Assembly: GCA_973895155.1 (NCBI GenBank)
Contig: OZ316897.1
Span: forward strand, 20,153,224 to 20,217,223
Direction: 5' to 3'
Length of the DNA: 64,000 nucleotides
From: Marsupella aquatica
Taxonomy: Eukaryota > Plantae > Marchantiophyta
Part shown: positions 45,601 to 46,804 of the stretch, in pieces
Numbering within the stretch: position 1 is the first letter of the stretch
Layout of the letters: every line of letters begins with the position of its first letter
Notes under the pieces: generated by a model
Databases searched by the model: none
Told to the model about the DNA's origin: nothing
Seen by the model: the letters and a program-made list of their open reading frames with translations, nothing else
Position numbers and translations under genes: made by a program

Positions 45601-46804
45601 TACGAACAATTAACTCACGGTCCTCCCTTTGTCAGGTAATCGCGGAGTCTCTATCTGAGGAAGAGATTATGGGACTCAAGGAGATGTTCAAGAGCATGGA
45701 CACAGATAATAGCGGCACAATCACTTTTGAAGAATTGAAGGATGGTCTTCAGAAGCAAGGCTCAAATCTGGCGGAATCAGAAGTGCGGCAGCTAATGGCA
45801 GCTGTAAGTCTAAGTTTGTTTTTTACTGGTATTGCTCCCTCTTGTCACCATTTGATCAGGGGTAAAATGTTGCTTACTCTTGCTTGCCTGGAATCATTTT
45901 GTCTCTTGTGGACTCATCACACTGGCCTGGCATGTTGACAGGCTGATGTGGATGGTGATGGCACTATTGACTATTTGGAGTTTATCTCTGCAACAATGCA
46001 TTTGAATAAGATAGATAAAGAAGAACATCTGTATACTGCCTTCCAACATTTTGATGCCGATGGAAGTGGGTGAGTATCACAAAATCCTCTTGGCCTAAAT
46101 CTCACTCACAGTACGGTCTGAATGTGCACAGGCTGATGTGGATGGTAATGGCACAATTGACTACTTGGAGTTTATTACGGCAACCATGCACTTAAATAAA
46201 GTAGACAAAGAGGATCATCTTTATGCTGCCTTCCAGCACTTTGATCAGGACAGCAGCGGGTGAGTTATTGAGTGCTCACACTTCAGGATCGCGCGTCAGC
46301 GCTTGCACCACACCTCAGGATCACTCTTCAGGGCTTGCACCATACCACTTCAGGATCACTCGTCAGGGCCACCCCACGGCTTAGTATTGTAGGTCAAAGT
46401 TTCTAAACCATTGTTGTGTGGCTTTATATCTCGTATTGCGCAGATTTATTACCATGGAAGAGCTTGAGCAGGCTCTTGTCAGGTATGGAATGGGAGATCC
46501 TGAAACTCTCAAAGAAATTATTAAGGAGGTCGACACAGATCATGTAAGTCTCGCGATAACTTGTTTTTGATTTTACCGTTTGCCACGGGTCCGTTTCATG
46601 GAACTGAAATACCGCATAACAGCAGGCACGTGAACTTCTACCCCAAGTTGTAATGATGGCTCTGTATTTCATGGGCTGCAGGATGGGCGGATCAATTATG
46701 ATGAATTTGCTGCGATGATGAGAAAAGGAACACCGGCTCCAGATGTAAACAGAAGGACCGTCAGTGGTCGTGGTACTGTTGGGCCCCCAAGGCAACGCAA
46801 ATGA
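42626..46804 (+). CDS. CPK: Calcium-dependent protein kinase (CDPK/CPK) with alternative exon 6
   Basis: Exons 42626-43340, 44680-44823, 44998-45150, 45421-45536, 45636-45803, [45942-46069 or 46132-46259], 46444-46543, 46682-46804. MGNC N-myristoylation/palmitoylation start, [20 protein letters not shown], junction [13 protein letters not shown] and four EF-hands. Confidence 0.97.
45942..46069 (+). other. CDPK alternative exon 6A (EF-hand 2 and start of EF-hand 3)
   Basis: cag|..|gtgagt, 128 nt; [43 protein letters not shown]. Confidence 0.92.
46132..46259 (+). other. CDPK alternative exon 6B (EF-hand 2 and start of EF-hand 3)
   Basis: cag|..|gtgagt, 128 nt; [43 protein letters not shown]. 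Confidence 0.92.

Follow-up and report, generated by a model that had tools for sequence, protein, structure and literature searches.

Two alternative exons in a CDPK of the liverwort Marchantia polymorpha were described by Nishiyama et al. 1999 (Plant Cell Physiol 40:205, PMID 10202816), the title of which reports differential expression in sexual organs. According to a passage in a later publication, the intron lying between the two Marchantia exons is not spliced out independently (PMC7663043). In animals, the duplicated exons 4a/4b of OGDH and those of alpha-tropomyosin have a branch site less than about 50 nt from the upstream donor, and it is from such animal work that the steric donor-to-branch threshold of about 50 nt derives; the two OGDH isoforms are moreover described there as differing in their Ca2+ response (passages in PMC7969005). 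For Arabidopsis CPK28, a retained intron that leads to an early stop and would remove the EF-hands from the CDPK has been reported in a passage of PMC10952736. Finally, seed-plant CDPKs (CPK17, CPK34 and CPK2-like among the hits) possess a 128-nt exon with the same borders as the exons considered here.

The gene analysed here lies in a 64,000-nt stretch of Marsupella aquatica DNA (the window). It shares with the Marchantia CDPK, an orthologue of 548 aa with about 83-84% identity, the duplication of the same exon in an Asp and an Asn version, while the Marchantia copies differ at 4 residues there and those of the window gene at 7, and the window host groups with Calypogeia (Jungermanniopsida) and not with Marchantiopsida. 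The animal cases differ in that, as far as the passages in PMC7969005 describe them, their branch point is mapped and distant and their intron measures 118-131 nt or more, whereas the window has a predicted branch site and an intron of 62 nt. CPK28 belongs to another CDPK subgroup and has no exon duplication (passage in PMC10952736), while retention in the window gene would lie between two alternative exons. Among seed-plant-type and moss-like CDPK loci, exon 6 is single in all 16 intron-bearing loci with both neighbouring exons visible, a count that leaves out the seed-plant-type loci L009, L011 and L012, where a neighbouring exon is not visible; three moss-like loci are intronless. Altogether, and with a probability of roughly 0.85, we consider that in this CDPK gene, an orthologue of the two-exon gene of Marchantia, exon 6 was duplicated in tandem, and that relatives splice in either A or B, which are never seen joined, likely because the intron between them is so short.

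Counting both A and B, the CDPK gene has nine coding exons on the + strand (Table 1), and these encode a Ser/Thr kinase, a junction and four EF-hands in one chain, the domain order of a plant CDPK/CPK. The best solved-structure matches of exon B are the CDPK chains 2aao, 9vhu and 1s6i. The original prediction, made from the letters of the window, described A and B as tandem 128-nt exons of identical phase with canonical splice sites, both open and 62 nt apart; re-measurement returned exactly this, with phase 0/2 and the borders AG and GTGAG, and as adjacent, duplication-derived exons of equal length and phase the two are homologous exons. They differ at 25/128 nt, 7/43 residues and 14 synonymous codons, which matches the 7 residues and about 14 synonymous sites counted before. 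Either A alone or B alone yields a 548-aa protein; the frame shift foreseen for both exons or neither leads to a stop at codon 496 when A and B are spliced together and at codon 440 when both are left out. Between A and B, dN is 0.08-0.11 and dS 0.74-1.5 (three methods), with 16 changes in 24.7 synonymous sites against 9 in 104.3 non-synonymous sites (pS 0.65, pN 0.09; Fisher p ~2e-8); both exons are under purifying selection, as had been proposed. The similarity between A and B is at background level about 10 nt beyond the splice sites, which points to an old exon duplication and not to a recent repeat or chance. When compared to contigs of close relatives, each alternative exon shows 0-2 differences. 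The 3' UTR (46805-47200) is covered and alignable in all four relatives' runs.

Table 1. Features of the CDPK gene in the Marsupella aquatica window (branch-point-like motifs are predictions).
Feature	Position in window	Strand	Remarks
Coding exon 1	42626..43340	+	Variable N-terminus from Met-Gly-Asn-Cys, then start of kinase domain; Pkinase E 3e-43
Coding exon 2	44680..44823	+	Joint 2→3 in 4/4 relatives' runs
Coding exon 3	44998..45150	+	Joint 3→4 in at least 3/4 relatives' runs
Coding exon 4 (kinase end, junction)	45421..45536	+	Joint 4→5 in 4/4 runs
Coding exon 5 (EF1)	45636..45803	+	Donor joins A or B
Branch-point-like CTCAT for exon A (predicted)	45913..45917	+	26 nt from intron 3' end; aligns with motif before B
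Exon 6A, alternative, 128 nt	45942..46069	+	EF2 loop (Asp, position 5), inter-lobe linker, first half of EF3 loop
Inter-exon intron, 62 nt	46070..46131	+	Splicing-out not seen; retained in relatives' RNA contigs
In-frame TGA read on intron retention	46071..46073	+	Product would end at 475 aa
Two overlapping branch-point-like CTCAC motifs (predicted)	46101..46109	+	Adenines 35 and 39 nt from donor of A
Exon 6B, alternative, 128 nt	46132..46259	+	EF2 loop (Asn, position 5), linker, first half of EF3 loop
Coding exon 7 (EF3 remainder, EF4 start)	46444..46543	+	Acceptor joins A or B
Last coding exon with stop codon	46682..46804	+	Joint 7→8 in 4/4 runs

The closest proteins to the window CDPK among the hits listed are liverwort proteins. 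In a tree built without exon 6, the window protein falls in the liverwort clade (99/97), within which the Marchantia gene is its orthologue, and is sister to Calypogeia fissa inside a group supported at 98/92; Calypogeia fissa belongs to Jungermanniopsida and Marchantia to Marchantiopsida. The Riccia fluitans cluster includes two Marchantia polymorpha records, BAA81748/BAA81750 and BAA81749/BAA81751, which are identical over 355 columns before exon 6 and differ by 4 residues in exon 6. We take them to be the isoforms of the 1999 description, in which the two exons reportedly bear the labels 6A and 6B. The link to Marchantia drawn in the original prediction was well founded: the gene is orthologous and the two 1999 records match A (Asp) and B (Asn). 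Exon B of the window is identical to the exon of one Calypogeia record, while exon A is 1 residue away from that of the other. These near-identical Calypogeia fissa records (P0009 and P0126) lie on different contigs, one with a B-type and one with an A-type exon, and may reflect either one-exon annotation of two copies or a real partition of the exons between copies. Annotation was suspected to drop one of the two exons; indeed, each of the five genome-model records from liverworts in which the exon-6 region is full-length holds one, and one further Riccia gene model ends where the D-type exon ends. Present gene models, in other words, miss one exon.

In order to follow splicing, six of ten listed runs were compared with the window, X1, X2, X3, X4 and X5 being RNA-type and X8 DNA-like. 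All RNA runs stem from organisms other than Marsupella aquatica (word share at most 0.19) and consist of contigs, in which rare forms drop out and levels cannot be read. In the complete joint table of X1, X2, X4 and X8, the six joints include all four junctions singled out by the original prediction (5→A, 5→B, A→7 and B→7), with A→7 and B→7 in each of the three RNA-type runs (X1, X2 and X4); neither A→B nor 5→7 was found among the six joints in these contigs, from which rare forms would be missing. The joints listed for X1, X2, X3 and X5 include the constitutive junctions, A→7 in X1, X2 and X5, and B→7 in X1 and X2. The DNA-like X8 is evenly covered in all 30 bins and has zero joints. In X4, a metatranscriptome of polyA RNA, a single contig runs 5-B-7, and exon 5 is not the same in the 5→A contig as in the 5→B contig, which assigns them to different loci or organisms. 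In X1, an identical exon-5 end lies loose before A and before B, each exon is joined to exon 7, and A, the intron and B are spanned by one contig of 122 nt; the shared exon-5 end together with this contig places both exons in one gene there. For the main gene in X2, no 5→B end is listed. The mutually exclusive use that had been predicted is borne out in these contigs: close relatives splice A or B as a single exon, and we infer the same for Marsupella aquatica. As a separate observation, A and B taken together differ less from the relatives than the constitutive exons do (X1, 2/255 versus 22/647, p 0.04; X2, 2/231 versus 19/348, p 0.003; the difference in X4 is not significant, and the species compared are not independent), and this low nucleotide divergence hints at splicing signals within the exons.

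The 62-nt intron is the shortest of the CDPK gene, the others measuring 99-1339 nt. Its length is 62 in all three relative alleles, in one of them through a compensating deletion and insertion, and the CTCAC motif is kept in the three alleles as far as their differences are listed. The predicted branch motifs within it are as far from the acceptor as those of the other introns. A length of 60 nt is near the experimental minimum for plant introns in a passage of PMC3371709, where intron size is also stated not to predict retention in Arabidopsis. With the donor of A and the branch site of B less than about 50 nt apart, the spliceosome would use one or the other. Such steric exclusion, with predicted branch motifs 35-39 nt from the donor, is the explanation towards which we lean, and frameshift followed by decay likely serves as its back-up. 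The 62-nt intron is also the least U-rich of eight (0.26), and low U content could instead block splicing without any steric effect. As a side observation, the gene call P0159 reads through the intron before exon 6 and displays Thr-His at the distance from the acceptor expected from the branch-like motif of the window (45913-45917), a weak hint that this motif is conserved.

The same intron is covered in three of the five RNA-type runs (X1, 52.7; X2, 39.9; X3, 15.9; none in X4 and X5). Concomitantly, both introns flanking the A-intron-B block have zero depth in X1 and X2, and the sole path consistent with this cover is 5→A-intron-B→7. In agreement with this, the Marchantia intron is the one reported not to be spliced out alone (passage in PMC7663043). 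If A contributed its acceptor and B its donor, the A-intron-B block would stay and translation would meet an immediate stop; judging from the sequence, the retained form would encode a 475-aa kinase with most of the C-lobe missing. Two records, P0010 from a 2095-nt contig and P0017, a Riccia sorocarpa model, stop exactly at the point of the retained-intron TGA. An early stop follows from any phase-2 GTRAG donor and is therefore no evidence of function, and we regard the retained form as probably a decay-prone by-product. Abundant transcripts containing both exons had been named in advance as speaking against exclusive use. Transcripts with A, intron and B unspliced do exist in three of the five RNA runs, but an A→B splice was not seen in the contigs; hence the retained form does not refute exclusion but adds a third product.

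Several other readings bear on these data. Exclusion could operate through competing RNA pairing of the docking/selector type: the start of exon A can form a duplex of -30.0 kcal/mol with 46263-46301, an energy reached by 6/150 and 3/150 shuffles, and the nucleotides of A and B are more conserved than those of the constitutive exons in X1 and X2. However, 8 pairs were tried and this duplex is the strongest of them, -29.7 is also attained by exon stretches without any relation to it, it lies within a variable tandem repeat and the whole region folds worse than shuffles (z +1.38). Pairing of the docking/selector type beyond chance did not emerge from these controls. Exclusion could also come about only through decay of the frameshifted forms, both of which carry early stops, but decay alone leaves unexplained why the stop-bearing retained form is visible and the A→B form absent; we hold it quite unlikely that either pairing or decay accounts for exclusion in place of the steric effect. 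That one copy is a pseudo-exon, or that the junction sets come from two single-exon paralogues, is very improbable indeed, even though a second type of contig, more divergent, occurs in X1 and X5 and the two Calypogeia records, each with one exon type, lie on separate contigs: dN is far below dS, the DNA-like X8 shows no joined form, and in X1 A and B share their exon 5 and exon 7 unitigs, which contradicts paralogues there. The retained form, for its part, might be a regulated third isoform resembling that of CPK28, a 475-aa kinase with EF1, EF2 and an incomplete C-lobe for which the pair was partly kept, and the cover of the 62-nt intron next to flanking introns at zero in X1 and X2, the end of P0010 exactly at the TGA and the conservation of shortened CPK28 isoforms up to bryophytes (passage in PMC10952736) would suit it. 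We consider this unlikely, since exon B has the same GTRAG-derived stop as exon A, an ordinary donor being sufficient explanation, and low cover occurs elsewhere too (X2 at intron 3, X3 at intron 1 and X5 at the intron following B). Two junctions lie downstream of the stop, and a premature stop in such a position is the usual decay signature; nuclear, partly spliced RNA would give an equal picture. Steric exclusion with a by-product of retention thus remains our preferred reading. Independently of these questions, the intron after exon B contains three imperfect 32-nt tandem copies (46277-46375), for which X8 has two alleles and which are partly replaced in X5.

B-type exons of other liverworts lie 0-3 residues from exon B of the window and A-type exons 1-9 from exon A. 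Position 5 of the EF2 loop is Asp in five of six A-type and Asn in six of six B-type exons, the exception being P0159, an upstream A-type exon with Asn; this position alone separates A from B across lineages, imperfectly. In non-liverwort segments it is Asn in 276/312 and Asp in 30/312, including lycophyte paralogues and CPK3-type kinases, the latter count being inflated because one of the searches used exon A. In an exon tree of 43 residues, five of the six A-type exons, Marchantia's included, cluster at 86/82, while the Marchantia D-type exon is 5 residues from window A and 4 from window B. A tandem copy of exon 6 was found in 0/32 non-liverwort loci in a metagenome scan that covered 12/64 parts, returned no close liverwort match and no identified hornwort, and took in loci of which not all are orthologues. 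The presence of the pair in a Jungermanniopsida-type liverwort implies that it likely predates the split from Marchantiopsida, and a single origin is favoured because the gene, the exon and rare EF3 residues are shared. One duplication before the split of Marchantiopsida and Jungermanniopsida is, on this comparison of sequences, what we would expect with good confidence. As side observations, the moss-like CDPK relatives at L001:1717-3324, L002:168-1706 and L005:1715-3166 have no introns anywhere in their coding region (two of the three lie on contigs of 12-15 kb), a state that suggests retrocopies or wholesale intron loss, and the exon 6 copies at L018:614-742 and L022:1510-1635 have an in-frame stop in the EF2 loop and are likely pseudogenes.

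The segment swapped between the isoforms runs from the EF2 loop through the inter-lobe linker into EF3, of which it takes in half. The original prediction placed one change at a Ca2+ ligand of the EF2 loop and two more in the EF3 loop. The D/N change at EF2 loop position 5 (exon residue 6), equivalent to calmodulin Asn60, stands; those in EF3 affect loop positions 2 and 4, neither of which counts as a ligand in canonical EF-hand numbering. Passages in PMC5570312 list N60D among the mutations used to improve GCaMP3 and, for a fungal-calmodulin sensor, describe it as not the Kd-lowering mutation. Two soybean calmodulins with unlike affinities in isolation are reported to respond alike in Mg2+ with a target (passage in PMC5309217), and the lobes of CDPKs are described with distinct affinities (passage in PMC12854072). 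A small shift in calcium response between A and B is plausible. The tuning of Ca2+ affinity appears weaker than originally claimed, because one upstream-type exon has Asn and because the EF3 changes miss the ligand positions. At slightly less than even odds, B would keep the ancestral sensor and A would be the more variable copy, with a probably small shift in EF2 Ca2+/Mg2+ binding or in packing at the lobe junction.

Age and function of the pair can both be read otherwise. The duplication of exon 6 might have happened independently in leafy and complex thalloid liverworts, with convergence on an Asp/Asn pair: on the 43 residues, AU tests reject neither one clade of Marchantiopsida exons (p-AU 0.13) or of leafy-type exons (0.45), nor one clade of all A (0.37) or all B (0.25), and Asp recurs in the 30 of 312 other CDPK segments. 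Against this, the same gene and the same exon were affected with the same nine-exon outcome, Gln/Ser occurs in the EF3 loop of B-type exons in both classes (only 4/312 others have the Gln), the Marchantia D-type exon groups with leafy A exons at the 86/82 node, and the 32 other loci have no exon-6 duplication; separate duplications are thus improbable next to the single early event that we favour. Somewhat less doubtful, though still on the unlikely side, is that the isoforms are functionally equal and the pair persists by constraint alone, each copy being used often enough to stay intact. All seven A/B changes are residues that occur in other CDPKs, most of the differences are not common to several lineages and one upstream exon has Asn, all of which would agree with equal isoforms, but Asp is kept in the other five A-type exons, the long persistence of both copies would be harder to explain if they did not differ, and the 1999 title reports differential expression in sexual organs (PMID 10202816). 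The split between the liverwort classes is dated to more than 400 million years ago. The most far-reaching combination, an exon pair older than that and locked by a too-short intron, which would supply two sensors distinguished at the ligand equivalent to calmodulin Asn60 as well as a regulated truncated kinase lacking the C-lobe, seems improbable to us as a whole.

The phenomenon and the gene are already known from Marchantia, and the exon pair of the window is real, its gene being the orthologue of the published one. What is new is its presence in the other large class of liverworts, which extends the single-species result of 1999, together with the retained-intron form and a steric model that can be tested; the comparison suggests that the pair is very old and that exclusion has a simple physical basis. 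No publication on the conservation of this pair was found, which is weak evidence as most subscription journals lay outside the search, and an MpCPK28 preprint yielded no passage on splicing. Marchantia is transformable, and the pair could thus become a clean plant model of mutually exclusive splicing. Elsewhere in the window, an 867-codon open frame at 30579-33182 (+) encodes a DEAH-type helicase (DEAD, Helicase_C, HA2 and the start of an OB fold) resembling spliceosomal helicases, with a copia-type gag fragment just 3' of it at 33963-34355 (+), and a 522-codon open frame at 50368-51936 (-) displays only a faint leucine-rich-repeat match.
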